From contig NW_027191414.1 of the NCBI RefSeq assembly GCF_041146345.1, positions 496,001-560,000 on the forward strand: a stretch of 64,000 nucleotides of DNA, given 5' to 3'. The notes beneath the pieces were generated by a model that saw only the letters and a program-made list of their open reading frames with translations, was not told where the DNA came from and did not search any database. Shown piece after piece: positions 1 through 45,332 of this stretch; position 1 is the stretch's first letter; every line of letters starts with the position of its first letter. The DNA comes from Neodothiora populina. Lineage: Eukaryota. A program made the position numbers and the translations under genes.

Positions 1-592
1 ATCAATAACTAACTTAGCAGAGTTTATACAGTACTCCGTATATGCCACAAAGTTATATAGGATATGAATTAATAATCTCACCGATGTTGACAAACCAGGA
101 TCTTTCATTTTGCTGGCTCTTGCGACTAGTGCCAGAAGATATAAGGTCTGCGAGGTCGGTCGGCTGCCACTTCCCCGAAGATTCCATCTCCACAGTTCCG
201 CTACCACGAGTTTCATCTACTTCCGCATCAAGATTGCGGGGATCTGCAGCAGCCACATTACATGCGTACACTGCCAAGGCCACCAATACATTGACGAAAT
301 GACGATCGCGCATGATATCTGTCGAGATGCACGAAGCCTTAGCACATAGCCTCGAACCGATCTTACCAAGGCAGATCAGTCGGCATGTTGTTGCATTCGC
401 TCTGCACCCCGCTCTGATGTAGTCGCATCGGGCCGTATGCAATGCGCCTGTAATGTGTATATAAAGGTATGCTGGACTCGCATGTCTTGTCAAAGGTGAC
501 TGTGACCCTCATTTGTTAATCCCTCGAAGGCGTGTCTTGTTCCCTCGGATATCGAGACTATCTCGAGTACACACAGACCTATGCATTACAGC

Positions 593-1955
593 ATGTTCTC
601 CCCTATCGTACAGCTTTGCGCTGTCGCAGGTCTAGCCTCGGCGACCAACCTTTTCGTCTCATCCTATGACGGTAACATCACCACACTGTCTTTGACCGAG
701 ACAAATGGATCATATAACCTTGGGAAAACATACTCCAATGATGGCTGTGCGCCGAATCCTTCTTGGCTTACTCTAGACTATGGTCATGGCGTTCTGTACT
801 GCTTGGATGAGGGTCTAACCACCGTAAATGGCACCTTGAGCTCTTTCACCATTGGCGCCAACGGTGAATTAGATCTTGTGGAGAAGAAAGACACCATCAA
901 CGGACCCGTCAGTGGAATCGTTTATGGCAATCCTGCCACAGGCAAGAGAGCGATTGCCCTGGCTCATTAGTACGTGATCTTGCCCTTGTATCGTACCCCT
1001 CTTGCATGGATGTCTGACAGAATATACAGCGTTGGAAGTGCCGTGAGTAGCTGGACTCTGAGTCCCTCGAGCAACGGAAACTTCACTTTCAACGAAGCAT
1101 TCACGTACGAGCTGGACCAACCTGGTCCAAATGCCCAGCGTCAGGATGCACCTCACGAGCACGAGGCAGTGGTCGACCCAACAGGGCAATTCATCCTGGT
1201 TCCTGATCTCGGCGCTGATGTTGTCCGTGTCTTCTCTATCGACCCAGACACCCTCAAGCTCACGCCCGAATCGCCACTCGAGGTCACACCAGGATCTGGT
1301 CCTCGCCACATTGCTTTCTACAACCCTCACAGCACCGTGTGCAAGACTTGCACGAGCTACATGTTCCTTGTCACCGAGCTCACCAACCGCGTCATCAGCT
1401 ATCGTCTGAGCTACCCTGCTGCTGGCGGCATGTCGTTCACCGAGGCTTTTAACATCAGCACCTTTGGTGACAACGCTGTTCCCGTTAACAACACTGCTGC
1501 CGAGATTGAGGTTTCTGTAAGTCTTTCCCACGTGTATCCTCGGTATCCTGCCTTGGCACTATATTCACCTCGCAGAAGAAGTGACGATAGACTACTGACT
1601 CACTCTTCAGCCCGACAACCGCTTCCTCATCGTCTCAAACCGAAACAACACCATCTTCAACCTGCCCAACCCAGACTACCCAACAAACAAGACCGAGATC
1701 CCCTCGGACGCCATCTCGACCTACCAGATCAACAAGGCCGATGGCTCCCTGACTCACACTCAGCTCTGGCCCGCCGGCGGCTTCTTTCCTCGTTCTTTCA
1801 GCATTAGCAAGGCCGGAGACTTGGTTGCTGTTGGCTTGCAGTACAGTAGCGAGGTCGTCATCTTGAGTCGTGATGTCGCTAGTGGCAATTTGGGAAGGCC
1901 GGTTGCGGCTATAGCGATTGATGGACAGGTCACTTCTGTTGTGTGGAATGAGTAG
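593..1955 (+). CDS. Secreted lactonase-family beta-propeller (6-phosphogluconolactonase / muconate cycloisomerase-like); exons 593-969, 1030-1516, 1611-1955
   Basis: Signal-peptide-like N-terminus; family motifs RQDAPHEH, DPTGQFILVPDLGADVVRVF, GSGPRH, SPDNRFLIVSNR, GGFFPRSF. GT-AG introns 970-1029 and 1517-1610 restore the frame. Alternative ATG at 581. Confidence 0.88.
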
Positions 1956-5200: not shown

Positions 5201-5636
5201 CTACCGAGGAGCGCGAGAGTGGGCTGTTGGTTCATTGATAAGCTGGTCTCAAGCTCTCCCTGGAAGGCCTGCGAGTATTGCGCGGCCACATACTCTGTTA
5301 GGTGGTCAAATTGTTCCCAGGTGATCGAAGCAAATATGTCATCCCGCGGCACCAGATATGCAAGCTCATCAGGGCGGGTGCGAGCATTGAACTTGATTAA
5401 ACGCGGGAGGCTCGTGAGGTTTGCATCGAGATATCTTAGATCATCGTCAGCCTTGGCGATACTACGACTGTTATATTCAGACCACCAACGAACTTCGAAC
5501 TCTGGATATCACCATGCTGCGCCCACAATTTCTTCAATCTAGAATCTGCATTCTCGGAGGGGAATACACTTGTATCTGAGACGTTCTCAATGTGACTTGC
5601 GCTACTCTCCAGGTCCGCGACAGCGATAGGAGCCAT
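2286..5636 (-). CDS. NRPS-like A-T-R enzyme (adenylation, thiolation, terminal reductase; carboxylic-acid-reductase-like); introns 5435-5493 and 4738-4786
   Basis: A-domain motifs IIHSSGSTGLPKPI, FPLFHIAG (across the intron), YGSTEIG, YRTNDLF, GRKDD, NGEKTN; carrier motif FYEIGLDS; reductase motifs LTGATGAIG and GYAQSKF. Confidence 0.92.
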
Positions 5637-6364
5637 GATAGGTTTTCGTGCTGGTGACGTTTGTGATACAATGCCGCCACGACCATGGCAGTCTTTGTAT
5701 AGCCATTCTTGCGCCTGATACCTGATAGTCCCAAGTCACGGCATGAAGTTGATAGCGTGATAGGAAAGCTGAGACCTTGCCCGTATCGGACCCTTCGGGC
5801 AAGCGTGATTGTAACAAGCAACAAACACACGAATCAGTGGACTGCCGCCAAGATTATCGTATCATCGCCGGCAACTTGGATTTCGGTGGAGATAGGCCCA
5901 TGCATCCAAAGACACTATTCTCCTGCGGCGCAGAATATACTCCTGCAAGGCCAATGTCACTGATCAGTATTGATATCGTAGTAACTTGGACACTCGATGA
6001 AATCCATGCTGACTTCAAATAGGCCTGCCCAGGCATTATAGGGCGGCAATCTACCCTATCTCTCAAACGCACGCAACAAACGCCTAAGATTCTCTTATCT
6101 TAGTCACATCGTGCTGTTGAGACGGCCAAGAGCCTTGGAACTCAGTGCAAAGTATGACCTTTGTACATGTAGATCGATCCTACAGGTAATATGGTGAGAT
6201 ATATACCCTTTGCCACATCTTACTGACTCCCTGTGACACTACGATATCTTTGTGATCTATTGCAATAAATTTAACCTGGTAACCTGGAGACATTTGCTTT
6301 AAGGCTGCCCAATACTCTACCATTTTTGCATTCGACAGCAGAGGCTCAGTACTTGCCAGAAGCT

Positions 6365-8004
6365 ATGTTGGGTCTTCGACGCCGACTGGCATTGGAATCA
6401 GCATACCTGAATGGTGCAGATGATCAGATAGCCTCAAACAGAGAACAAGAACCTATACCACCGGACTCGGTTGAACGAACATGGACTTGGCCTTCACTGC
6501 TTGGCTTCTGGGTTGCAGAAGCCTTCTCCATATCTATGTACCAGGTTTCTTCTAGCTCTGTGAGTAAAGGACTCAATCCAGGTCTCTCTATCCTGGCAGT
6601 CCTTATCGGTCATTTTCTCGTCTGTATTCCGGCTATCCTGGACGGATGGGTAGGCGCAACATTCGGCATCAACTTCCCAATCTTTACCCGAGCCAGTTTT
6701 GGTATGCGAGGGAGTTACTTTGCCGTCTTCATCAGAGGCGTTGTCGCTGTCATCTGGTTTGGAACCCAGAGTTTCCAAGGTGGGCAATGCCTACAGGTCA
6801 TGATATCCGCTATATGGCCTAGCTTTAATCGCTTTCCAAATCACATCCCTGAAAGTTCGCATGTTACGTCTGCACAACTGCTTTGCTTCTTCCTCTTCAT
6901 CATCGTCCAAGCACCACTGCTGTGGTTGAAGGTGTCGAGTCTCAGATACATGTTCATGGCCAAGACTGTCATCATGCCGATATTCGGTCTTACGCTCTTC
7001 ATCTGGGCACTGGTCGCTGCGAAGGGTTTCGGTCCAACGTTCTCGAAGCCTACCCACATCAAGGACGGAACCTCCACCGCAGTTGTCTTTCTTCAATGCG
7101 TCACGACTGCCATCGGTCCCAAGGCCACTCTTGCACTGAACATGCCCGATTTCACCCGATATGCGAAGAAGAGATCTGATGTTATCTGGACACAAGCAGT
7201 TGGCCTTATGGTCCTCGTCACCATGTGTGGCGTGTTGGGTGCAACTGTATCCAGCGCTACAGAAGTGATATATGGCAAGACAACCTGGAACCCTCTTGAG
7301 GTGGCAGTGCTTTGGAACAACAGGGCAGCACAATTCTTCGCTGGCTTATGCTGGATGTTCGCAGTCATTGGCACGAATATTTCTGCCAACAGTGTCTCAT
7401 TCTCGAACGATCTTGCTCTCTGGTTCCCGAAGTACATTAACGCCAGAAGAGGCGCATATGTCTGCTGCATTCTTAGTATTGCTTGCACACCATGGAATAT
7501 CCAATACAAGTAGGTCCATGGACTTCGTTTTTGTAATCATTGCGTGACTAACCCATCATTAGTGCCAAATCATTCTCGTCGTTCCTCGGCGGTTACTCCT
7601 TGTTCTTGGGCGCTCTTGCTGGAGTCATCGTCACTGACTTCTGGATTTGCCGTCGCCGGTCATTGGACGTGCGAGAGCTGTACAAGAAGCACAGCGTCCA
7701 CAGCTTCACGAAAGGATTCAACTTTCGTGCGTTTGTTGCTTTCTTCTGCGGCATTGCACCCGATCTACCAGGTCTAGCTGCCGCCTGTGGCGCAAAGGGT
7801 GTCCCTGTGGGCGCGAAGGATCTGTACAGTCTCAGCTGGCTCGTGGCGATCATCATCTCGGGAGCAGTGTACTGGGCATTGTGGAAGATCTTCCCATTCG
7901 AAGTCTCGCCGAGCAGCGACATGTATGTCGATGGGATTGAAGACAGATCAGATGATGGTGTCACCAAGATACCACACGAAGTTTCGAAAAAGGATTTCGA
8001 CTAA
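6365..8004 (+). CDS. NCS1 (nucleobase:cation symporter-1) permease, Fur4/Dal4-like; intron 7510-7562
   Basis: Multi-TM protein with GINFPIFTRASFGMRG, WFGTQS, NMPDFTRY, TNISANS, PKYINARRG, PWNI, FLGGY motifs. The GTAGGT...AG intron joins the two ORFs in frame. Confidence 0.93.
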
Positions 8005-8214
8005 GATGGTTGAAATGTTACACCATTACGAGCCAGGCACCATTATAAGCCAGGGAAGGGGATAATGGGATCAATGATTATATGACAATTAAATATGTAC
8101 TCTAAAATGAAAATTACATCGTTCATCAAGGAAACGCTCCTTTATCATAAAGTAAGAGAAACATAACGGTGAATCATGGATATCGTGTGTTGAGACAATG
8201 AAAAGCGGAAGGAC

Positions 8215-10381
8215 TTAGGACATGATAGACTGCTCCTGGAAGGCTTGGAGAGCAGATGGGGACAGCTCTATGAGCTTGTCAACACCAGCAACATACAAAG
8301 CGTCCAACCTAAGTAGGGCGAGGTTCAAGAGGTCACAGCTTCGAGACTTAAGACGTAGAAGACTTCTCCAGGATCCGAGCAATTGCAGACACTCGTTCGC
8401 ATCAGTGAGGGTAGGGGCAGTTGCGAAAAGTAGGACCATGAAGTTGCTCGCAATAGTGAAGTTTGTTCGCGAGTCTGCTAAGCATTAGTACCGTAGCAAG
8501 ATAGAAGCAGGCACCCAAACTTACATGATGGCCAGAATGCTTCGAGGTGGCTAACATCAAGGGCATCCAGAAATTCAAACATCTCCTTTGCCAGAGAAAT
8601 TGCGCCCTGACGAAGAGCTGCACCAGCTTGCACGTTTGCCTCACCTCTAGGCCTCAACATGGCGCGGAATAACTCGATCTTGGCGGTGATGTAAGCTAGA
8701 TGTAGTGAACCTTCACCATTGAGGTCGTGGGCTTTGCGATCATTGGCTGGGGAAAGTCTGTCCTTGTCGAGGTCCTTGTACCATTGAGCAAGCTTCAAAC
8801 GCAAAGGCTTTGCCACCTCAAGAGTTGACTCAAGGGAGTTGCAGAGCTTTCGAGTGGATTTCAATGAGCTAGTATGCGGTCAGTACAGCAGGTCTGGATT
8901 CGTCACAGCCAGAACTTACAATAGGTTCCGAAGGATCTCATCAACTATTTCAGCTAATACACATAGCCGTAGAAAATACTCTGATTGAATGATTCCTTGA
9001 TCGTTCTCTTCGAAATCTTCAAATGTCAGAGGGTTCACGTCCCAATCGTCTGCGCTAATGTGTGAGCTTCGGCCAAAATTGAGACTCAGCCACTTCTCCT
9101 GTGAATACAGCGCCCAAGCCACTCTCTTTCGAAGCTTCAGCTCCCAGATTGGTAGTGGCCAGTCTGCTGGATCGAGATTGAGACCGAGCGCTTGCGATAT
9201 TGACACTGCATTGGTCATGATGATCCACTTGAACGGGGTGTCTGCGACATGCCTGTTGGTCGGCCGCCTTTGCACGAGCAGAAGTAGGGTCTGAACCACG
9301 GCCAACGAAGGTATGTGGAATTGAGGGATGCACGCTGTCCAGGCCAGTGTGAAGAGAGCATCCGGAGATGGAGGTGTATATACCTCGACACAAAGCTGGT
9401 CATCAAATATGCAAAAGGGCAGGGCATGACCATAGATTGCTGCAAGCAAAGGAGTGGCTATACGATCCGGGTCAAATTCACCATCACGCATGCTGCGTTC
9501 CCTCGAAAGAATTGGGAAGTATGGCTGTATGTAACGAAAAAAACTGTGGTGGACAAGGAATATTAGATGGGGTACGAGAACACAGAGGCTGTCAAACAAG
9601 GAGTGAGATTCAGTACGTACAGCTTTATAAGTCTCTTGCCAACTCCGTCATTGACTATATCCTTGATTTCCCTTCTCCATGTGTCCACGCTGTTTGGGTT
9701 CTCAGCAGGCTGAGCTTTTGCAGCAAGCTTGTTCTGCTGGATCATGAAATGCACCGGTACGCTATCGTTCTCTCCAACTCGTCGCATACGGATCTGTTGG
9801 AAGGTAAACTCGTTGTTGCCATCGAATCGATAGTGACGGAGGAGATACGGGTCTTGTTCGCCACTCAAGCCTACCACTTGAGAGTGACTGGACGTTTGTG
9901 AATCAAGAGAAGGTTCTCCAGCACATGAGGGATCAAGTGGAAGCGACTGTGGCGTGTCATTGGCAGGTGGAGCTAGGCCTGCTTGGACAGGATCGAATTG
10001 CTCAAACATCAAGGGCTCGTAGACTGGAGGATCAAATGTGAAGTCGCTGTGCAGAGATGGGGGAAGGAACGGTGGCAACTGCTGCTCCCAGCTCAACAGC
10101 TCACTGCTGATATCAAAGTTGTTGTTTGTCGGCAGCAATATTTCTGATGACCGACGTTCCTCGTTCGGCCGGCGACGCTTTGCAGGACTTTCAACGAAGG
10201 TACATTCTTTGCCATATCGAATACATAACTCGCATGGTGGATCTGCCTCGAGGTGGCAGGCAGCTTTTTTGTAACGACAGAAATCACAGGGACGTTTGTT
10301 ACGGCTCTTGTACGCCCTTGACCTGTCTTGAGCGTCTGTTTGCATCTGCTTGGGCAAACCTGGAGCACCCATGATGTCCAT
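8215..10381 (-). CDS. Zn(II)2Cys6 transcription factor with fungal-specific TF domain, Dal81/TamA-like; introns 9544-9620, 8869-8919, 8475-8524
   Basis: PCDFCRYKKAACHLEADPPCELCIRYGKEC binuclear cluster; VVGLSGEQDPYLL; ALGLNLDPADW...ELKLRKRVAWALY middle-homology region; canonical GTACGT/GTAAGT donors. The subfamily is my recognition only. Confidence 0.9.
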
Positions 10382-11959
10382 GCCTTTTTAGCCTAGGAGA
10401 TGGAGGTTTGTCTGATAGGCGTGGAGGGACGACCTATCTGGCCGTCGTGTCTGTCTAAATAAAGGCGAGAGAATGCGGGTAATCCTACAATACTCATAAA
10501 AGCAACGGCATCCCTCGACTTCTTCAGATCAAGAAACCGAGTTGTTGGGGACAAAGGTGACTATCGGTCATACTGTATTTCCCGATCAACAGCACTTTAC
10601 GCATGAAGCTATCAGCGAATACTCTATTGGTCGATGTTCCAATTGCGATGTCGCATTGTATGTTTATCCTTATCGGATCCACCGACACGCTATCCTGCTA
10701 AGAGCTACTCCACTCACGGTACACCGACCGCATCCCACGTGGCTACCATGGCTGAAAAGCCCAGCTTCGTTGTCATTTGTTCTGTTCCAGAAGTCTGGGT
10801 TCTCTCCATTCTATGATCAACGCGATACGAAGTATAATCTTTCGCTCTGGGTCATCCATAATCCGCCTTTTTGCCATGGAGCTATGTAGCGAGCATACGA
10901 CAATCGTTAGCCAAGGCAACTTTCTTGTTTGATACAGTCTCTAGTGCTGTATTGCTCTGACCTTATCAGCATCCTTGCGACGTCGGCGAGTCAAATTGAG
11001 TAAGCGAGCCATGACAAACGGTACGCAAAGCCCCTCTGTTTAGAGAGATGGAATGCGGGCAGAGTGGGGCTCGAGGGGATGGCGTGTTAAAGAGGACCCT
11101 GTCGATCCCCTGGAGTGGTTTCTGGCGGCCTTTTTAGCGCATTAAATCGCCGCGGTGGACTTTCGGACGAGTTCAAAGAGGAAGGCTCAGCCCGAGCGAT
11201 GAACGTATTGTCGGACTTTACATAAACCACACGACATCCATATATTCCCGGCGTGAGTAACCCTAGTAGTGAAGTCAAGCTGGCAAGCATAACGTGGTAC
11301 CTTATGGTTACAGATTCTGGTAGGCGTCTATATACGACTATAAGATGTGACCTGGATCCATGACGGCCATAGCAGTGTTTACCACTGCAGCAAAATCGAA
11401 AGATCCGGTGGGACTTCCGTCACGATTGTTTGGAACCTGTGTAGGTACTTCTACGCACAAGTACAAGTAGTGCCGTAGGCAGAGCCGCTTCGCCGGCGGG
11501 TTGGTACTAGATAAGCATTATGCCCAGCGTATATCGTGGTCCTTACTTCTCCATGTTTCTTATCAAACATGAGGGGTTGGCCGTATCGCGGCTCTCGGCC
11601 AACATCACTACGAGGTGTGCGTACGCATGCCTGGTTACTGATGTGCAGGGACATAGATAGGACAGTCGTGTAGTGGAGCGCCGTACTGATGGTGCTGTAT
11701 GTTGGCCGGATATGGCCCATATCGTTGAGCCTACCAATGTACAGAATATGATAGCTCTATCAGGTCTGCTTCAAGTATGCTTTATGTTTGTATCTTGAAT
11801 TAATTATCTTCAGTGTCAGCCTTCATAATATCACCGTCAATCCAAAGAGATACCGAGACTAGACTGCATACACAACCCCATCACTGACACTGAGTCGCAG
11901 CATTCCCTCCTTCACACGTCACCACAATAGCTCATTTCTAGGGACGTAAAGGATTTACA

Positions 11960-13792
11960 ATGGCGCGGAAGATAGTGCTTGCAGCTGCGCAGATGGGAGC
12001 TACCCATCGTAGTGATGAAAGACCTCAGACCTTGGCTCGTATGGTAGAACTTCTGAAGCAAGCAGGTTCCAAAGGTGCTGATGTGGTTCTTTTCCCTGAG
12101 ACTGCGTTTACGACATTCTTTCCTCGGTATTTGATCGAAGACCCGGTCGAACTCGAGTTCTGGTTCGAGCACGGAGACGTGACCACAGCGCCACAGACGA
12201 AGGCTCTTTTCGAGACGTCCAAGCAAATTGGAGTAGATATTGCTGTAGGCTTCGCTGAAGCGACCGAGGACGGTGAACACTTCAACAGTACGATATATTA
12301 CCATGCCAAAACTGGCTCCGTCTTGTCCAAATACCGGAAGATCCATCTCCCAGGCGATTTTGAGCCTATCGGCGACAAGAATACCACTCAGCAACTAGAG
12401 AAACGCTACTTCAAAGTTGGCGACCTGGGATTTAAGGCCTTCCGCGTGCCTGATCTGGCCCAACCTACAACAGCTGAGCGTGGCGAACCCATCTTTGGTA
12501 TGATGATTTGCAACGACCGACGATGGGCTGAAGCATGGAGAGTGTTAGGCTTACAAGGTGTTGAGGTTGTATTATGCGGCTACAACACTACTGGTTATGC
12601 CCCTGAGTTGTGGGGCTGGGATAAGGATGTTGCACCTGAAGCAATGCGTGATCTGGCAGTGTTTCAACACAAGCTCTCAATGCAGGGACACTCGTACACC
12701 AACGCATGCTTCTCCGTGAGTGCTGCACGTTGCGGTCTCGACGACGGAAAGCACGACCTTGTGGGAGGCTCGTGTATCACCGACCCCGAGGGCCGCATTC
12801 TTGCCGAAGCAAAGACAACAGAAGATGAAATAGTGATTGCAGAATGCGACCTAGATCTTTGCCGGGCAGGGAAGACGCGGATCTTCGACTTCTCCAGACA
12901 CAGACGGCCTGAACACTATAAACTTGTCACAGAGCAAGTTGGTGTCATCGAGCCTCCTAGGCTGTCAACAATCAACCACGCGGACGGCCACCTTGCTGAG
13001 ACGAACGGCGTCCAAGTTAACGGCACAAATGGTGTGTCAAGGAGTGGCAACAAGAAGATCAGGGTGTTGCTTGTAAACCCTAACGCGACGAAGTTCATGA
13101 CCGACAACTGCGTGAAGATGGTCGAGTCACAACTGCCACCTGATGTCGAAGTCATCGGCTTTACATCACCACCTCCAGCACCAACAGCCGTAGAGGGCAA
13201 CTTCGACGGTGTGATGTCTGCGGCAGCCGCAATGCGTGCGCTGAAGCCCATCGCCCACGGATACGATGCTTTCCTCGTAGCCTGCTATAGTGATCACGCA
13301 CTGATCCGTATGCTACGCGAAGAGTTCCTACAACCCACTATCGGTATCATGGAGGCATCCCTCTTCGCGGCACGCACTCTGGGCAATCGATTTGGATTGA
13401 TTGCCACGAGCAGACGCTCAAAGGCGATGCACGAGGACTCGATCCGACACTACGGCTTCGACGGCTTTTGTGCCGGAGTCGGAAGCTGTGGTCTAGGTGT
13501 CCTCGAACTCGAAAGCAAGAGCGAAAGAGAGGTGCTGGACATCATGTGCGGCGTAGCCAAGGACTTGGTAGAGAAAGGCGCGGACTGCTTGACGCTGGGT
13601 TGTGCAGGCATGACGATGCTGAAGCCGGCAGTCGAGGCGGCTGTAGGCGAGGATGTTCAGGTCATAGATGGAGTATTGGCCGGTGTGCAGCACCTATCTG
13701 GCCTTGTGAGGATGGGTGGGAGAACAGCCAAGGGGGGCATGTATGCCAGCTCTGCAAGAGGCAGAAAGAATCGTGGCCAGAACTACTACTGA
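11960..13792 (+). CDS. Two-domain fusion: N-carbamoyl-D-amino-acid amidohydrolase (nitrilase superfamily) + Asp/Glu/hydantoin racemase (Dcg1-like)
   Basis: Single intronless 610-aa ORF. N-part has the nitrilase triad FPETAF (Glu), YRKIHLPG (Lys), ICNDRRWAEAWRVLGLQG (Cys). After an NG-rich linker the C-part has LVNPNAT, VACYSDH, IGIMEAS, LGCAGM, VIDGV. Confidence 0.92.
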   Translation: MARKIVLAAAQMGATHRSDERPQTLARMVELLKQAGSKGADVVLFPETAFTTFFPRYLIEDPVELEFWFEHGDVTTAPQTKALFETSKQIGVDIAVGFAEATEDGEHFNSTIYYHAKTGSVLSKYRKIHLPGDFEPIGDKNTTQQLEKRYFKVGDLGFKAFRVPDLAQPTTAERGEPIFGMMICNDRRWAEAWRVLGLQGVEVVLCGYNTTGYAPELWGWDKDVAPEAMRDLAVFQHKLSMQGHSYTNACFSVSAARCGLDDGKHDLVGGSCITDPEGRILAEAKTTEDEIVIAECDLDLCRAGKTRIFDFSRHRRPEHYKLVTEQVGVIEPPRLSTINHADGHLAETNGVQVNGTNGVSRSGNKKIRVLLVNPNATKFMTDNCVKMVESQLPPDVEVIGFTSPPPAPTAVEGNFDGVMSAAAAMRALKPIAHGYDAFLVACYSDHALIRMLREEFLQPTIGIMEASLFAARTLGNRFGLIATSRRSKAMHEDSIRHYGFDGFCAGVGSCGLGVLELESKSEREVLDIMCGVAKDLVEKGADCLTLGCAGMTMLKPAVEAAVGEDVQVIDGVLAGVQHLSGLVRMGGRTAKGGMYASSARGRKNRGQNYY

Positions 13793-14450
13793 TCCGACTT
13801 ACTCTGGATAGATCACGACAGTATATACGGATATGACGATAGCCATGAGCATCTATGTTTTGCAGCGGTCAATAAGGTGGCTTTTGTTCGCTCAACTTAA
13901 GAGTATCGGCATGCCTAAATTTACACAAGACGTGCTGCAGCTCGACTAGCCTGACTTCGCATATGCGACTGACACCTTGCTTCTGTAACCACTACCTATG
14001 ACACGACCCGTCTGCGCTTGGTAAGGGCCAACCGAACAAAGAGCAAGAGCGGAACGAAGGTACGTTGGTGACGTCGCTAGCGCTGTTGCATTTAGGCGAG
14101 AGCAAATTCCGCTACTGATGATAGCACAGTACCTCGGCGAATGTACCAACATTCAGAACCGCGCTGCCACACGACAACCTACCGTACACTATCTTCGGAC
14201 AAATATGTAGCACATTGCTTTCGGACCTTGCAGCGCCACTATTAGGTATGTACTCAAGTATCCAAGCCTTGGTGTCAGCACACCCTACGACGACGTAGCT
14301 ACCCCGCATAACCCCTCATACTCCGTAGCTTGTCCGTACATAAACAATGCGGCGAAGGTAGGAGTGCTTGACAAAGCAACTTTGTGTTCTCTGCAGTGGA
14401 AAGCATACCTTTCCCAGTCATAAACATAAATTCGTGTTTCGAAAAGTGAT

Positions 14451-15697
14451 ATGGCCGCACAAAGTCAGCTCCCGCAGGGAGAGTACGTCGACCCAGCACA
14501 GGCGCAAGGAGCACAAATACCGCTGCAATCCTTCTCACTACCACAATTCCCACCCCAGGCACAGGGTCTCAAAGCGCTGACCTTGACATCTGACATCAAG
14601 CTCGACGACTACCAGTCACTGCTTTCTCAGCAATTCGAGATACCCCTATTACCAACTTCGATCGAGTCTTTGACACTCGAGCTGTTCTCCCTTGGCTATC
14701 CTCCTGGCTTTCTTACTCAATTGGCAGACCGTCTGCCTAACATTAAAAGCTTAGTAGTATACAGCCAGCTTTTGGGAGGTGTGAGCGAAGCTTCTCAGGC
14801 AGACTGCGTCGAGTTCTTCCGCAAACTATCGGGTCTCAGAGCACTGCACCTCCTGGATGTGTTTGCCAAAGCTGGGTTCTTCACATCGATTGCTCCATAC
14901 CTCACCTACTCTGCGGAGGGTGAGGATGCAAGAAGAGGCTTAATGTTCCTTGAGATCAACTACACCGTGCAGCATTCTGATGCGGATTTTCTGCCTAAGA
15001 TTCAGGCGACCGAACTGCCAAAGTTGATCGGACCAGGTCTGATCACAGCCGCCTTCAATGTGAGTGAAGCAGATGTCACCGATGATCCAGATGATCCAAA
15101 CAACGCCAGTGATGCACCAGAAGAAGAGCTCGCGAAAGATGGGATAATGGCCTTCAACAAGACATTGGCATCTGGACTCGTGGACATGTTGACCGATGAA
15201 GAGACTCGCCCAAGAAGTCTCAAGGTATTGAATTTGACTTTGTACACCCTTACACCCGCGGATCTGAAGAAAGTGGCAGAGAAGCACACAGGATTGATGG
15301 TGCTGAGTGCTACGATTGAAGTCGATGAACAAGATGCGAACCGCCGATTCTTGGTCAAGACACTTGCTTCTCTAAACAAGTTGGAGCAAGTCGAAATAGT
15401 CGCGAGTCCGAGTCTTCCATTTTTCATGGCGGTAAGTCCTGACATGAATTGTGCATCCATGAGCAATCAAGTAACAATGCTGGATAGGTACAAAACACCC
15501 GCGCAAACGCCCTCGAGGGCTCTATGCCGTCAATCAAGGACATGGAAGGATTAGCAGAAAAATGCAAGCAGCTGAAGAACCTGAAGGCAAACATTCTCCG
15601 GTCGCACGCAATGGATTCGCTCGAGTGGGCCAAGGACAAGGACAAGTGGGAAGGAGGCATCAAGCATGGTGACATGCTTATATCCGGTGCTGCTTAA
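14451..15697 (+). CDS. Hypothetical protein with LRR/RNI-like leucine periodicity; intron 15432-15487
   Basis: Long ORF with repeated LxxLxL segments (LPNIKSLVVY, LSGLRALHL, SLKVLNL, LNKLEQVEI). The GTAAGT...TAG intron gives a second exon ending in TAA at 15697. Confidence 0.75.
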
Positions 15698-16541: not shown

Positions 16542-17474
16542 ATGGCTACCCAAGGAGAATACGCAAAGACGAAGATTAATGCAGTGAATCGATATCGTGG
16601 ACGAGGTCCGTAAATCCTGGGTGGCTCTGACTAAGATGCGCTTCCACTCTACTCGAGAACCTGTACCCAGCAGAGGTCAATTATGTGAGTCATCTCTGGA
16701 CTAACATGCCTCGCAGGCAAATATGACCACGAAACCATCCACGCGTTAGTGAACTCTGTACCAGTGCTGCACGTCTCCTTCAACGTGCCTCTGCCAGACG
16801 ACGACGACGAAAGCGGGATAAGCTATCCAACAATTCTGCCAATGATAGGCTGCATGTCAAACTACCGCTCACCGGGCTCAATCTCTGCTCCCCAAGCCGA
16901 CAACGACAACGACAACTCCGACGAACCCCCAGTGCTCTACCTCCACGGCTACATCTCCTCGCGGCTGATCAAGCAAGGTGGCACCAACACGGGCTTACCA
17001 ATGAGCATAGCCGCGACCTCTCTGGACGGCCTAGTCCTAGCCCTGACCCCCAACCACCACAGCTGCAACTACCGCTCGGCGGTCCTCTTCGGGCGCGCGA
17101 CGCTGGTTTCCGACGAGTCAGAGCGAATGAGAGCCATGCAGCTCATCACGGAGAACATGCTGCCTAATCGCTGGAATAACAGCCGTGTGCCGCCGACCAA
17201 AGTCGAGATGCAGTCGACGGGAATCCTGAGGGTTGAGATTGATGCTGCGAGTGCGAAGACGAGGACCGGGGGCCCGGGAGAGGATAGGGCTGATTTGAAG
17301 GACGAGGCGCTCAGGGAAAGGGTTTGGACTGGTGTTGTGCCGGTTTCGTTGCAGTGGGGGGAGCCAGTGCCGGCGGAGGGGAATAGAGTCGATAAGGTGC
17401 CGGGGTATGTGGAGGAGTGGAGGGTGGGCTCTAATGCGGAGGCAGTCAAGGCCTCTACGGATTCTGCTTCTTGA
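16542..17474 (+). CDS. Flavin-nucleotide-binding split-barrel protein (pyridoxamine 5'-phosphate oxidase-like / NimA-like); intron 16606-16716
   Basis: VNRYRGR|GKYDHETIH across the intron; LYLHGYISSRL, LDGLVLALTPNHHSCNYRSAV, VWTGVVP motifs. Confidence 0.85.
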
Positions 17475-43124: not shown

Positions 43125-44312
43125 TCACTGCATAATGTTCGCACCCATATCCTTGACCTCGCCACCCACAGATCTCACGGGGTGTCGATCGATAATGAAA
43201 AGCCTGTCAAACGTGTCTGCGTCCCAGCACATGCGCGCGGAACTGAACTCTCGCGCTGCGAACTGCGGGCCGAGCGTTTCGCGGAGTAAAGTGCGCATGC
43301 GGGATTCGGAGTCTAAAGGGATCTGATTGCGGGCGAGCGGGGTGGATTTGGGGGGGGCGGCCTGGGCAGGTGGAGACGGGGTTGATGTAGCCTGGGTGTT
43401 CGTCGCAGATTTCGAGCTCTGGAGGGTTCGAGGCTGTGGGCTCGATGAAGAGGCCTCGGTCTGCGGCGAAGAGGACGGGGAGAGCTTTCATGCGCGCTGC
43501 TTCGGGAGCTGTTAGAAGGATGTGGGCTAGGGTCGGTTTTGGACTGATCAGCTCAAAGTGAAGACGGGTGAAGGAGGAGGGATGCGGGTGCTGACCCATG
43601 CTGTCTGTCTTAGTTGGCCTTCGAAATCAAAGATCAGATCAGAGGATGCTCCAGCGGCGAGAATGACATGTTCAGCGAGATGCTCGACCGCATCTGCGGT
43701 TCTCGCTCCCAGAACCTTGCCGGCATCCTCATCATATATCAATGCCTGCACTTTCCCCACAGGATCACCAGCAACGAACTTGACACCCAGTCTACACGCC
43801 TCTGAATATGCACTCATCATCGCGCCTCGAGCGAACACCCACCCAGCACCTTTCTTCCTCCAAAACCCTCTCCAGCCAGGGAACTCACCGTTCAACACCC
43901 CCTCAGGCATCATCTTCCTAAACGCCTCTTTGCCATTCACGACCTCATACTCGTCCTCATGCCCAGTCGTATACCCCTTGACATGCTCATACGCTTCATC
44001 TCCCACAGCAGCAAACACGATGCCCGTCTCATGGTAGAAGCGTTTGTACACCTCATCATTTCTCCAGGCCTCAGTAGCTATCTGATGCATGCGGTTCCAG
44101 ACATATGACTCTTGGTTATCCGTCGACGAGGGCGGATCGCCTTCTTCCATGATTTTATTCACGTCGTTGCCCGCTGAGATGCTAGAGGGGATTGCGCAGC
44201 TGTCGAGGACGAGGATGTCGGTGTAGCCTCGCCGTGCCAGGGTTAGTGCTGTGCTGATGCCCCATGTGCCGCCGCCTATTACTTGGATTGGAGAGTTTTG
44301 AGTGGGAGGCAT
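43125..44312 (-). pseudogene. Fructosyl-amino-acid oxidase (amadoriase / sarcosine-oxidase family), apparently disrupted
   Basis: VIGGGTWGISTA, SAGNDVNKI, GAGWVFA, TAW|TLAHI, ICDEHPGY, MCWDADT. The intron 43534-43595 ends in CG rather than AG, there is a frameshift at the G8 run 43350-43357, and the C-terminal segment after DRHP is missing. Confidence 0.8.
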
Positions 44313-45332
44313 TGTTGAGGGTGTGGTCTTTATGAGGTTGGTATATTTGCTTTGCTTGGGCTTATGGATAGGTCAACAGGGCAGAATTGTCAACCGTATG
44401 GTTCAGGCCAAGTCGATCTCTGTATTGCACGTAAGGGTAGATATATAAAGCGAAAGTTCAGACGATGCTAATGTAGTCAGACACGATTGAAGTGAATCAA
44501 GATATCACAAGCATGATTAGAAATGAACATGATTTCAAGGAGGTAGTTGATGTTTCATATTCTACACCATGCAGGTCCGATGGTGGCGTGGGAAGATGTG
44601 GTGGAGACGTATATACATCGTGTGGAGACATGTGATAAGAGGAATTGGTCCACCTTCCACTCCTGGCTTGCATATGACAAAACGACTGAGACGATCCTGC
44701 GAGCTTACCGCATTCATAGTGGCAATATGGATTGTGAGATCCAGGAGTGGTGGATTGGCACATGAGTATGATATTCGTGGACGAGTATACGATTAGTCGA
44801 CTTTCGGCTGACCACAGCGCTGTGCAGTATTGCGGAAAGCCATGATCATCACTATCTATACAAGTTGAAACTACTATATAGGCACATACGGCCACAGGCA
44901 GCTGAGAACTGGGCATCCCGTCCGCTCTGCCAGACATAAGCAGTTGACCGGCTGATTAGTACTACGGTGGGTGACCACGTGGGAATCCCAGCTGCTGTAT
45001 GTTTTGTATTTTTGCAACAGACATACGAACATCGGTCTTCGCACTGTTGTGGTTCACCATGTTTTGGGCATCGTACTCAGAGCACGTCCTCGTAGTGGTA
45101 CGCAATTCAAGCTGCGTAGTGTTTGAGTCGACCGTGTTCGGCTGCGACGTCCAACTCGTGACTCTTGCTGGGCTATTTAGAATTCAACATTTCCCTCCCG
45201 GTTATATTACTTTTGTTTATCTTTCAATCAACGTGAGTCTCGTAATGACCGATCTCTCGAACGATCTGGGCTTGACTGGACCAGACCATATGCTGTAGAT
45301 GCGTAGCTAGACTTTCTCCTGCTCGTGAGTCA

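Follow-up and report, generated by a model that had tools for sequence, protein, structure and literature searches.

A candidate fungal counterpart of bacterial hydantoin-utilisation systems in Neodothiora populina, centred on a predicted carbamoylase-racemase fusion

A 64-kb stretch of the Neodothiora populina genome (contig NW_027191414.1, positions 496,001 to 560,000; referred to as the window, and the source of all coordinates unless a locus is named) carries side by side the genes for an NCS1 permease, a Zn2Cys6 regulator, and a protein in which a domain resembling N-carbamoyl-D-amino-acid hydrolase (DCase, or D-carbamoylase) is fused to a hydantoin/allantoin-type racemase domain (Table 1). 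We suggest, with a probability of roughly 0.6 and on the strength of sequence comparisons, that these genes belong to a conserved fungal catabolic cluster that is the eukaryotic counterpart of the bacterial hydantoin-utilisation (hyu) systems. Together with the gene of a non-ribosomal peptide synthetase (NRPS)-like reductase, located upstream of the permease, they are probably co-regulated. Many other fungi have these genes next to one another, some relatives add the ring-opening hydantoinase that the window lacks, and a palindromic element occurs in both bidirectional promoters of the cluster.

A preliminary description of this DNA had placed the permease, regulator, and fusion genes next to one another, the last two divergent over about 1.6 kb. 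Both points hold, the gap between regulator and fusion measuring 1,578-1,587 bp. Its account of the gene content was correct for these three genes and incomplete beyond them, as the cluster probably has a fourth member in the NRPS-like reductase.

The fusion enzyme, permease, and regulator

Gene identities were assigned from Pfam, NCBIfam (TIGR), and PDB sequence matches. The fusion is encoded by a single open reading frame (ORF) recognized by Pfam as CN_hydrolase (residues 8-303, 1.3e-41) followed by Asp_Glu_race (PF01177; residues 369-578, 3.4e-56). Its residues 1-329 align end-to-end with N-carbamoyl-D-amino-acid hydrolases of known structure (8i99, 7.4e-74; 1fo6, 4e-69; also 6le2 and 1erz), and the identity of the hydrolase domain to genuine D-carbamoylases is about 50%. 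E47, K127, C184, N185, R187, and R188 are invariant among 17 aligned fungal orthologs, as is the C-N-D-R-R-W substrate loop. This triad and loop correspond to Glu47/Lys127/Cys172, Asn173, and Arg176 of DCase, for which roles are given in PMC11503299, and all residues expected of an enzyme of class EC 3.5.1.77 (the Glu-Lys-Cys triad and the Asn173/Arg175/Arg176 loop) are found in the fusion. The position of DCase Pro199 is variable in the fusion subfamily. The domain thus resembles DCase over its full length, catalytic triad and loop included, and differs from it in being joined to a racemase; its carbamoylase activity is predicted.

The racemase domain follows a variable linker of about 30 residues, and residues 367-598 match allantoin and hydantoin racemases (5lfd, 1.7e-26; 3qvj, 6.9e-25). 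Its catalytic C442 and C548 and an NPN motif are invariant among the same 17 orthologs, and the two cysteines align with Cys residues that are Ser in the 3qvk mutant. The polar substrate contacts of KpAllR are Asn12, Thr118, and Thr119 (PMC12661438); the Asn of the NPN motif is kept in the fusion, and the Thr-Thr contact aligns to Ala-Thr-Ser, possibly with a one-residue shift. The domain shares the Asp/Glu racemase fold and the hydantoin-allantoin subfamily with Klebsiella HpxA (3qvj), Pseudomonas AllR (5lfd), and the fungal OpaE, but it is distant from HpxA and AllR and, unlike them, lies C-terminal to a hydrolase. OpaE, described as the only well-characterized fungal member of the family (PMC12661438), acts on a bulky non-ribosomal peptide derivative, unlike the substrate proposed here for the fusion.

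The database protein for this gene, P0001 (599 aa), begins at the second Met (11993) and is probably 11 residues short, because 16 orthologs and the solved D-carbamoylases align from the ATG at 11960. Proteins of the fusion type form a large family, with at least 120 fungal members that contain both domains (120 of 120 among the matches listed), and the fusion matches 741 proteins of comparable length at E<=1e-10, which come from ascomycetes and some basidiomycetes. Their database labels read only "carbon-nitrogen hydrolase."

The permease is a member of the NCS1 (Fur-type) family, as shown by PF02133 (Transp_cyt_pur) matches along its full length (exon 1, 2.2e-79; exon 2, 5.3e-20), a TIGR00800 match (3e-83), and Fur-like orthologs across Pezizomycotina (66-86% identity); our gene model is identical to database protein P0121. 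It thereby falls in one family with the Fur-type NCS1 proteins of Aspergillus nidulans and with the bacterial Mhp1, to which its similarity is remote (1.4e-4), and PMC10788122 describes fungal members as H+ symporters. A description of a fungal hydantoin transporter was not found in our literature searches.

The regulator contains the Zn_clus and Fungal_trans domains, and its four-exon model reproduces database protein P0241, with an alternative in-frame ATG at 10381. It is a cluster-linked Zn2Cys6 factor; an assignment to the Dal81/TamA type is not established by the shared domains, a set common to hundreds of fungal factors, and automatic names of its orthologs include a few "DAL81" and others such as "cnsN" or "xylanolytic activator." Dal81/TamA is itself a general co-activator and not cluster-linked.

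Table 1. Positions of the cluster genes, promoter elements, and neighboring features in the window (aa, amino acids).
Feature	Position	Strand	Remarks
7-bladed lactonase-family gene	506-1807	+	upstream of NRPS-like gene
NRPS-like A-T-R (adenylation, carrier, thioester-reductase) gene	5636-2286	-	at least 3 exons, ATG at 5636, N-terminal exon 5636..~5490
Palindrome TTGCCCG-N12-CGGGCAA	5777..5802	.	NRPS-like/NCS1 bidirectional promoter; 141 bp from NRPS-like ATG, 563 bp from NCS1 ATG
Further half-site	6123-6129		NRPS-like/NCS1 promoter
NCS1 (Fur-type) permease	6365..8004	+	exons 6365..7509 and 7563..8004, 528 aa; intron 7510-7562, 53 nt, GT-AG
Zn2Cys6 regulator	10372..8215	-	4 exons (10372..9621, 9543..8920, 8868..8525, 8474..8215), 659 aa
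Palindrome TTGGCCG-N12-CGGCCAA	11577..11602	.	regulator/fusion promoter, 358 bp upstream of fusion ATG
Further half-site	11702-11708		regulator/fusion promoter
Carbamoylase-racemase fusion	11960..13792	+	intronless, 610 aa
D-carbamoylase-like CN-hydrolase domain	11960..12964	+	fusion residues 1-335; PDB matches 7e-74 to 1e-68
Hydantoin/allantoin-type racemase domain	13058..13792	+	fusion residues 367-610; PDB 5lfd, 3qvj
ORF of no assigned family	14430-15554
Pyridox_ox_2 family gene	16689-17474	+	downstream of fusion
M20 amidohydrolase	19425-18118	-	4.3 kb downstream of fusion
FAD-dependent oxidoreductase, Pfam DAO family	43548-44372	-	1.8e-19; 30 kb from cluster
Open frame, 784 aa	47293-49647	+	no Pfam match at E<=0.001

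Conservation of the cluster and a linked hydantoinase

Co-location in other species had been set beforehand as a test of the cluster, and it was found: reading the locus tags of orthologs from three protein searches, we see consecutive or near-consecutive tags for fusion, regulator, and permease in at least eight other named genomes (Table 2), spanning Dothideomycetes, Colletotrichum, and Onygenales. In addition, fusion, regulator, and permease orthologs are all assigned to a short contig of the same size (31,102 bp), and fusion and regulator orthologs to short contigs of 12,398, 13,307, and 10,297 bp. With the adjacency recurring in many other fungi, the arrangement is more than chance. Orthologs of the regulator and the permease were also retrieved from Aureobasidium pullulans.

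Table 2. Locus tags of orthologs in named genomes.
Genome	Fusion	Regulator	NCS1 permease
Meristemomyces frigidus, assembly 1	LTR08_003990	003991	003992
Meristemomyces frigidus, assembly 2	LTR85_010983	010982	010981
Vermiconidia calcicola	LTR37_018272	018273	018277
Saxophila tyrrhenica	LTR77_010049	010050	not among the matches listed
Colletotrichum jinshuiense	EsH8_III_001426	001425	not among the matches listed
Dothideomycetes sp. NU459	g3946	g3945	not among the matches listed
Emmonsiellopsis sp.	FQN53_002022	not among the matches listed	002020
Diplodia seriata	SLS55_008934	not among the matches listed	008938

A metagenome scan with the ortholog alignment retrieved 80 loci, 45 of them eukaryote-like and 35 bacteria-like by their guanine-plus-cytosine content, which we examined by tblastn with the window neighbors and by Pfam scans. 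Besides the fused form, these loci include a second cluster type in which carbamoylase and racemase are separate and usually convergent genes. Among the eukaryote-like loci, the orthologous regulator is present in 11 (plus one hit at a contig edge), the NCS1 permease in two (L017 and L018, identical over their shared genes), and the NRPS-like gene in three (L021, L027, and L033). The closest relative that shares the layout of the window is L014, which includes the regulator ortholog. Locus L018 holds a full set of NCS1 permease, hydantoinase, carbamoylase, racemase, and regulator, and the 90%-identity cluster that contains its racemase also holds Helotiales proteins (Stipitochalara, Hymenoscyphus/Tricladium, and Hyaloscypha). 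His144 of industrial DCases is Gln (in QLEKRYF) in all 80 loci; we do not count this as a fungal-specific change, as the scan pattern itself required the Gln.

The preliminary description had stated that the window contains no ring-opening hydantoinase and had proposed looking for one joining the genes in other species. The first statement is confirmed: Amidohydro_1 and Hydantoinase_A/B domains are absent from a Pfam scan of 54 of the 134 long ORFs of the window, and tblastn of the window with two fungal D-hydantoinases returned nothing at E<1e-3. The search elsewhere was positive, with a D-hydantoinase/dihydropyrimidinase gene (490-518 aa) in seven of the 45 eukaryote-like loci (L017, L018, L021, L024, L030, L036, and L038) and a fragment of one at a further contig edge. 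This gene adjoins the carbamoylase gene and is divergent from it. Its products score 418 and 415 bits with the TIGR02033 model for D-hydantoinases (cut-off 393) and fail the allantoinase model (226 vs. a cut-off of 358), and their PDB matches are the yeast dihydropyrimidinase 2fty (1e-100) and the D-hydantoinase 1nfg (2e-97). One hydantoinase-bearing locus, L036, is of the fused type; here the hydantoinase is divergent from the fusion, whose two domains join on removal of a predicted 50-nt intron in the linker.

Two variants were seen among the related loci. In L031, L034, and L037, a cytochrome P450 gene is divergent from the carbamoylase gene, which is followed by a same-strand racemase ORF with an N-terminal extension of 190-300 residues; neither a regulator homolog nor a pair of the CGG(C/G)CAA half-sites described below was found in these three loci. 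The carbamoylase of L020 (62-1096) lies inside the fused-form clade, as sister to that of L036, and no racemase is present in the 3.2 kb downstream, which may reflect secondary loss or fission.

The shared promoter element and a probable fourth gene

A conserved half-site, CGG(C/G)CAA, marks the promoters of the cluster. By k-mer counting, ACGGCCAA was found in 10 of 15 cluster intergenic regions (shuffled maximum 6), and when the discovery was repeated without the window it was found in 8 of 13 (shuffled maximum 5). Of the 11 occurrences of CGGCCAA in the window, four fall in the two cluster promoters, which make up 3.8% of the sequence (binomial P = 5.6e-4). The inverted arrangement TTGSCCG-N12-CGGSCAA occurs exactly twice in the 64 kb, once in each bidirectional cluster promoter, and none of 100 dinucleotide shuffles matches this; the two copies are identical at 19 of 26 positions.

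The pairing extends to the related loci. In 390 kb of fungal loci we counted 17 inverted half-site pairs within 20 nt (shuffled mean 0.34, maximum 3), nine of them located 340-710 bp upstream of the carbamoylase gene, in the promoter it has in common with the hydantoinase gene where that is present, and the other eight between the racemase and regulator genes. No such pair was found in the loci with a solitary fused gene or in the bacteria-like loci. Paired CGG half-sites are a classic target of Zn2Cys6 factors, and over 47 residues of its DNA-binding region the window regulator shows 55-57% identity to the Helotiales regulators. We infer that the cluster regulator probably binds the paired CGG(C/G)CAA half-sites. 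The earlier suggestion that the module is self-regulated gains support from the occurrence of the palindrome in both bidirectional promoters. As a side observation, the spacer of the everted half-site pair is 12 nt in the window and 1 nt upstream of Helotiales carbamoylase genes (L018:3978-3992 and relatives); these differ by 11 bp, roughly one turn of the helix.

Two other motif leads were set aside. All three window matches of CGTATCGS lie in the two cluster promoters, where it forms the inner part of the larger palindrome, but its total in the window is at chance level (mean 2.2), and it is not enriched in the other loci, where its 18 matches in 419 kb include several in coding sequence. 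The second lead, CGGTGGRACTTYCSG, is not cluster-specific. A blastn search of the regulator-fusion intergenic region against L014 and the NCS1 promoter returned only 9-10-mers at E>1.

The NRPS-like gene, which is divergent from the permease gene, carries AMP-binding, AMP-binding_C_3, PP-binding, and NAD_binding_4 domains, with a TIGR01746 thioester reductase match (8e-51) and PDB matches to carboxylic acid reductases; its N-terminal exon was located by homology to L021, L027, and L033. In these three loci, homologs of 41-56% identity are found upstream of the carbamoylase gene. The reductase is likely the fourth member of the cluster, because of the promoter site 141 bp upstream of it and the synteny in the three contigs, while its role is unexplained. 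In L021, three half-sites occur within 450 bp of one another in the 1 kb upstream of the NRPS-like start. In the stretches of about 4 kb from the NRPS-like to the carbamoylase gene in L027 (5910-9990) and L033 (2940-7240), no recognizable gene was found, and conservation between the two contigs is only patchy there.

Proposed pathway, alternatives, and neighboring genes

In the proposed pathway, the Fur-type NCS1 symporter would import a cyclic ureide, most likely a 5-monosubstituted hydantoin, and the racemase domain of the fusion would interconvert its C5 enantiomers. A D-selective hydantoinase/dihydropyrimidinase would then open the ring; Helotiales and a single relative of the fused type have the gene of this enzyme inside the cluster, whereas in N. 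populina it would be encoded elsewhere or lost. The carbamoylase domain would convert the N-carbamoyl-D-amino acid to the D-amino acid, CO2, and NH3, presumably serving to scavenge nitrogen. The NRPS-like reductase may process the acid product. The Zn2Cys6 factor would control the permease, the fusion, the reductase, and its own gene through the paired half-sites in the two bidirectional promoters.

Bacterial hyu genes are known from Arthrobacter aurescens (hyuP-hyuA-hyuH-hyuC), Agrobacterium, and Pseudomonas. As in those operons, the fungal cluster in its fullest form combines a racemase, a cyclic-amide hydrolase, an N-carbamoyl-amino-acid amidohydrolase, an uptake protein, and a dedicated regulator. 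In the window, the fusion supplies by sequence both carbamoylase and racemase, and a dedicated transporter and regulator are adjacent, in the form of the NCS1 permease and the Zn2Cys6 factor. The hyu transporter of Arthrobacter/Microbacterium is also an NCS1 protein (Mhp1/HyuP; PMC10788122). The differences are several. The fungal genes are monocistronic in the eukaryotic manner and share bidirectional promoters; the regulator is a Zn2Cys6 factor, whereas LysR regulators are found in bacterial loci; and racemase and carbamoylase form one polypeptide in the fungal fusion, whereas they are separate genes in five bacterial loci. In addition, the hydantoinase of the fungal loci belongs to the dihydropyrimidinases of eukaryotic type, with only 24-29% identity to the amidohydrolases of the bacterial loci (alphaproteobacterial hyu-like loci used for comparison were L047, L056, L053, and L124), and the window lacks a hydantoinase and has an NRPS-like reductase.

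Several observations weigh against a hyu-like function. A ring-opener is not co-encoded in the 64 kb of the window, the fusion joins steps 1 and 3 of the hydantoinase process, which are not consecutive, and no known hyu pathway assigns a role to an NRPS-like reductase. Among solved structures, the racemase domain matches allantoin racemases best, and the top NCBIfam equivalogs of the permease are allantoin permeases, with scores far under the cut-off (154 vs. 620). The cluster is also patchy, since in many fungi the fusion gene is solitary; on metagenome contigs with long flanks it stands among unrelated, mostly housekeeping neighbors in L001 (identical to L002, a Thermoascus-like sequence), L003, L005, L009, L010, and L011. 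The promoter motif was found post hoc, with the cross-validated test and the shuffles as the only safeguards; the exact half-site pair was not found in L014, in L036, or in the hydantoinase-carbamoylase promoter of L021, and L015 and L022 have half-sites in other arrangements. The relatives retrieved are biased by the peptide patterns used in the scans ([NQ]QLEKRYF and TTFFPR..). Finally, the physiological substrates of even the bacterial hyu systems are uncertain.

The matches to allantoin racemases and permeases could be taken to indicate a urea-independent route for allantoin or other ureides, in which an allantoin permease and an allantoin racemase would work with a DCase-like domain that cleaves allantoate or ureidoglycolate. 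Allantoate is formally N-carbamoyl-2-ureidoglycine, and plant and bacterial M20 amidohydrolases perform this cleavage. The DAL cluster of Saccharomyces cerevisiae likewise links an NCS1 protein (DAL4), a racemase homolog (DCG1), and a cyclic amidohydrolase (DAL1), according to PMC13751858; as described there, it has allantoicase, ureidoglycolate lyase, and malate synthase genes but neither a CN-hydrolase carbamoylase nor an in-cluster Zn2Cys6 regulator. We consider this route unlikely: the linked ring-opener passes the D-hydantoinase model and fails that of allantoinase, the type found in DAL; the permease falls far short of the allantoin permease cut-off; and the hydrolase, at about 50% identity to genuine D-carbamoylases, retains the Arg pair by which these bind the carboxylate. 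None of the scanned ORFs of the window or of related loci encodes an allantoinase, allantoicase, or ureidoglycolate lyase. Fungi, moreover, already have an allantoinase/allantoicase route.

A small secondary-metabolite cluster would give the reductase a role, namely the formation of a product derived from an amino aldehyde, with the permease exporting it or importing a precursor, the racemase epimerizing a cyclic (diketopiperazine- or hydantoin-like) intermediate in the manner of OpaE and NozR, and the CN-hydrolase trimming a carbamoyl group. In favor of this, four lineages keep the NRPS-like gene in synteny, the palindrome lies just upstream of its start, and the related L031, L034, and L037 pair a DCase with a P450. 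This explanation is nonetheless quite improbable, as the NRPS-like gene is absent from L018, the most complete cluster, and from L024, the constant core is a trio of degradative enzymes with an importer-type NCS1 protein, and the nearest bacterial relatives lie in catabolic-looking operons with uptake transporters.

Reductive pyrimidine catabolism, with uptake of uracil, dihydrouracil, or dihydrothymine followed by a dihydropyrimidinase and the CN-hydrolase acting as beta-ureidopropionase, appears very improbable. Many permease orthologs are automatically annotated as "uracil permease," the best solved match of the associated amidohydrolase is the yeast dihydropyrimidinase, and eukaryotic beta-ureidopropionases are also CN-hydrolases (2vhh), but the hydrolase matches beta-ureidopropionase at only 1e-7 (vs. 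7e-74 for D-carbamoylases), the racemase, which is the most constant partner, fused or adjacent, has no step in this pathway, and no dihydropyrimidine dehydrogenase was seen in any scanned locus. That the genes are independently acting neighbors kept together by descent, as the solitary fusion genes of several fungi might suggest, is hardly credible given a linkage maintained in Dothideomycetes, Sordariomycetes, Eurotiomycetes, and Leotiomycetes even where genes have been reordered, turned around, fused, or split, and a common cis-element restricted to the cluster promoters.

Within the hyu-like reading, a more specific version is tentative and, in our judgment, somewhat short of an even chance: the cluster may represent an unrecognized, regulator-controlled, D-stereospecific fungal breakdown of cyclic ureides, in which an Alphaproteobacteria-like carbamoylase-racemase pair was fused in one lineage, a dedicated CGG(C/G)CAA operator governs expression, and the NRPS-like reductase converts the D-amino acid. 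Regarding the origin of the pair, a quick maximum-likelihood analysis of the carbamoylase domain (78 rows, root assumed) places all 43 eukaryote-like carbamoylases in one clade on a long stem among bacteria-like sequences (Shimodaira-Hasegawa-like approximate likelihood ratio test, SH-aLRT, 100), with the fused forms as one sub-clade (SH-aLRT 97) and the split forms as its sister group. Among prokaryotes, the closest relatives, at 48-52% identity, belong to the Alphaproteobacteria (Roseomonas and other Acetobacteraceae, Bradyrhizobium, and Beijerinckiaceae). In all five bacterial loci examined, a separate racemase gene lies immediately downstream of the carbamoylase gene; an amidohydrolase gene comes after this pair in L047 and L056, and LysR regulators and ATP-binding cassette or tripartite tricarboxylate (TTT) uptake systems are added in the bacteria-like L053, L075, and L078. 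Since the genes in bacteria and the domains of the fungal fusion come in one and the same order, it is plausible that the pair came from bacteria; this is not demonstrated, because the peptide patterns of the scan biased the sampling and the root was assumed.

A full-text literature search, with subscription journals partly outside its reach, found no description of a fungal hydantoin-utilization cluster, a fungal D-carbamoylase, or a carbamoylase-racemase fusion, in line with the earlier statement that no characterized fungal cluster of this composition is known. Two candidate prior descriptions were rejected, since the accessible parts of PMC12735256 and PMC3977361 concern only an oxoprolinase-type hydantoinase or an unrelated Neurospora gene. 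If the more specific version above is correct, the cluster would be the first hyu-type system in fungi and would give a eukaryotic D-carbamoylase its first physiological context. It is of interest because a large anonymous fungal protein family would gain a directly testable function and the cluster regulator a candidate operator sequence. The fusion would also be a natural bifunctional enzyme relevant to the industrial hydantoinase process for D-amino acids, and possibly an example of genes from a bacterial operon turned into a fungal fusion gene within a cluster regulated in the eukaryotic style.

The ORF at 14430-15554 and the Pyridox_ox_2, M20, and lactonase genes were not counted as cluster members, as they have no homologs in the 80 metagenome loci and no promoter element. 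This exclusion is weak, because no locus of the window's cluster type reaches downstream of the fusion. The M20 enzyme was considered as an L-carbamoylase and rejected: it belongs to the aminoacylase/ILR1 subfamily (TIGR01891, 255 bits) and not to that of carbamoylases and allantoate amidohydrolases, and its PDB match, 6slf (5e-81), is an N-acyl-glutamine aminoacylase. Farther away, the window contains a 784-aa open frame and a gene for an FAD-dependent oxidoreductase of the DAO family (Table 1).

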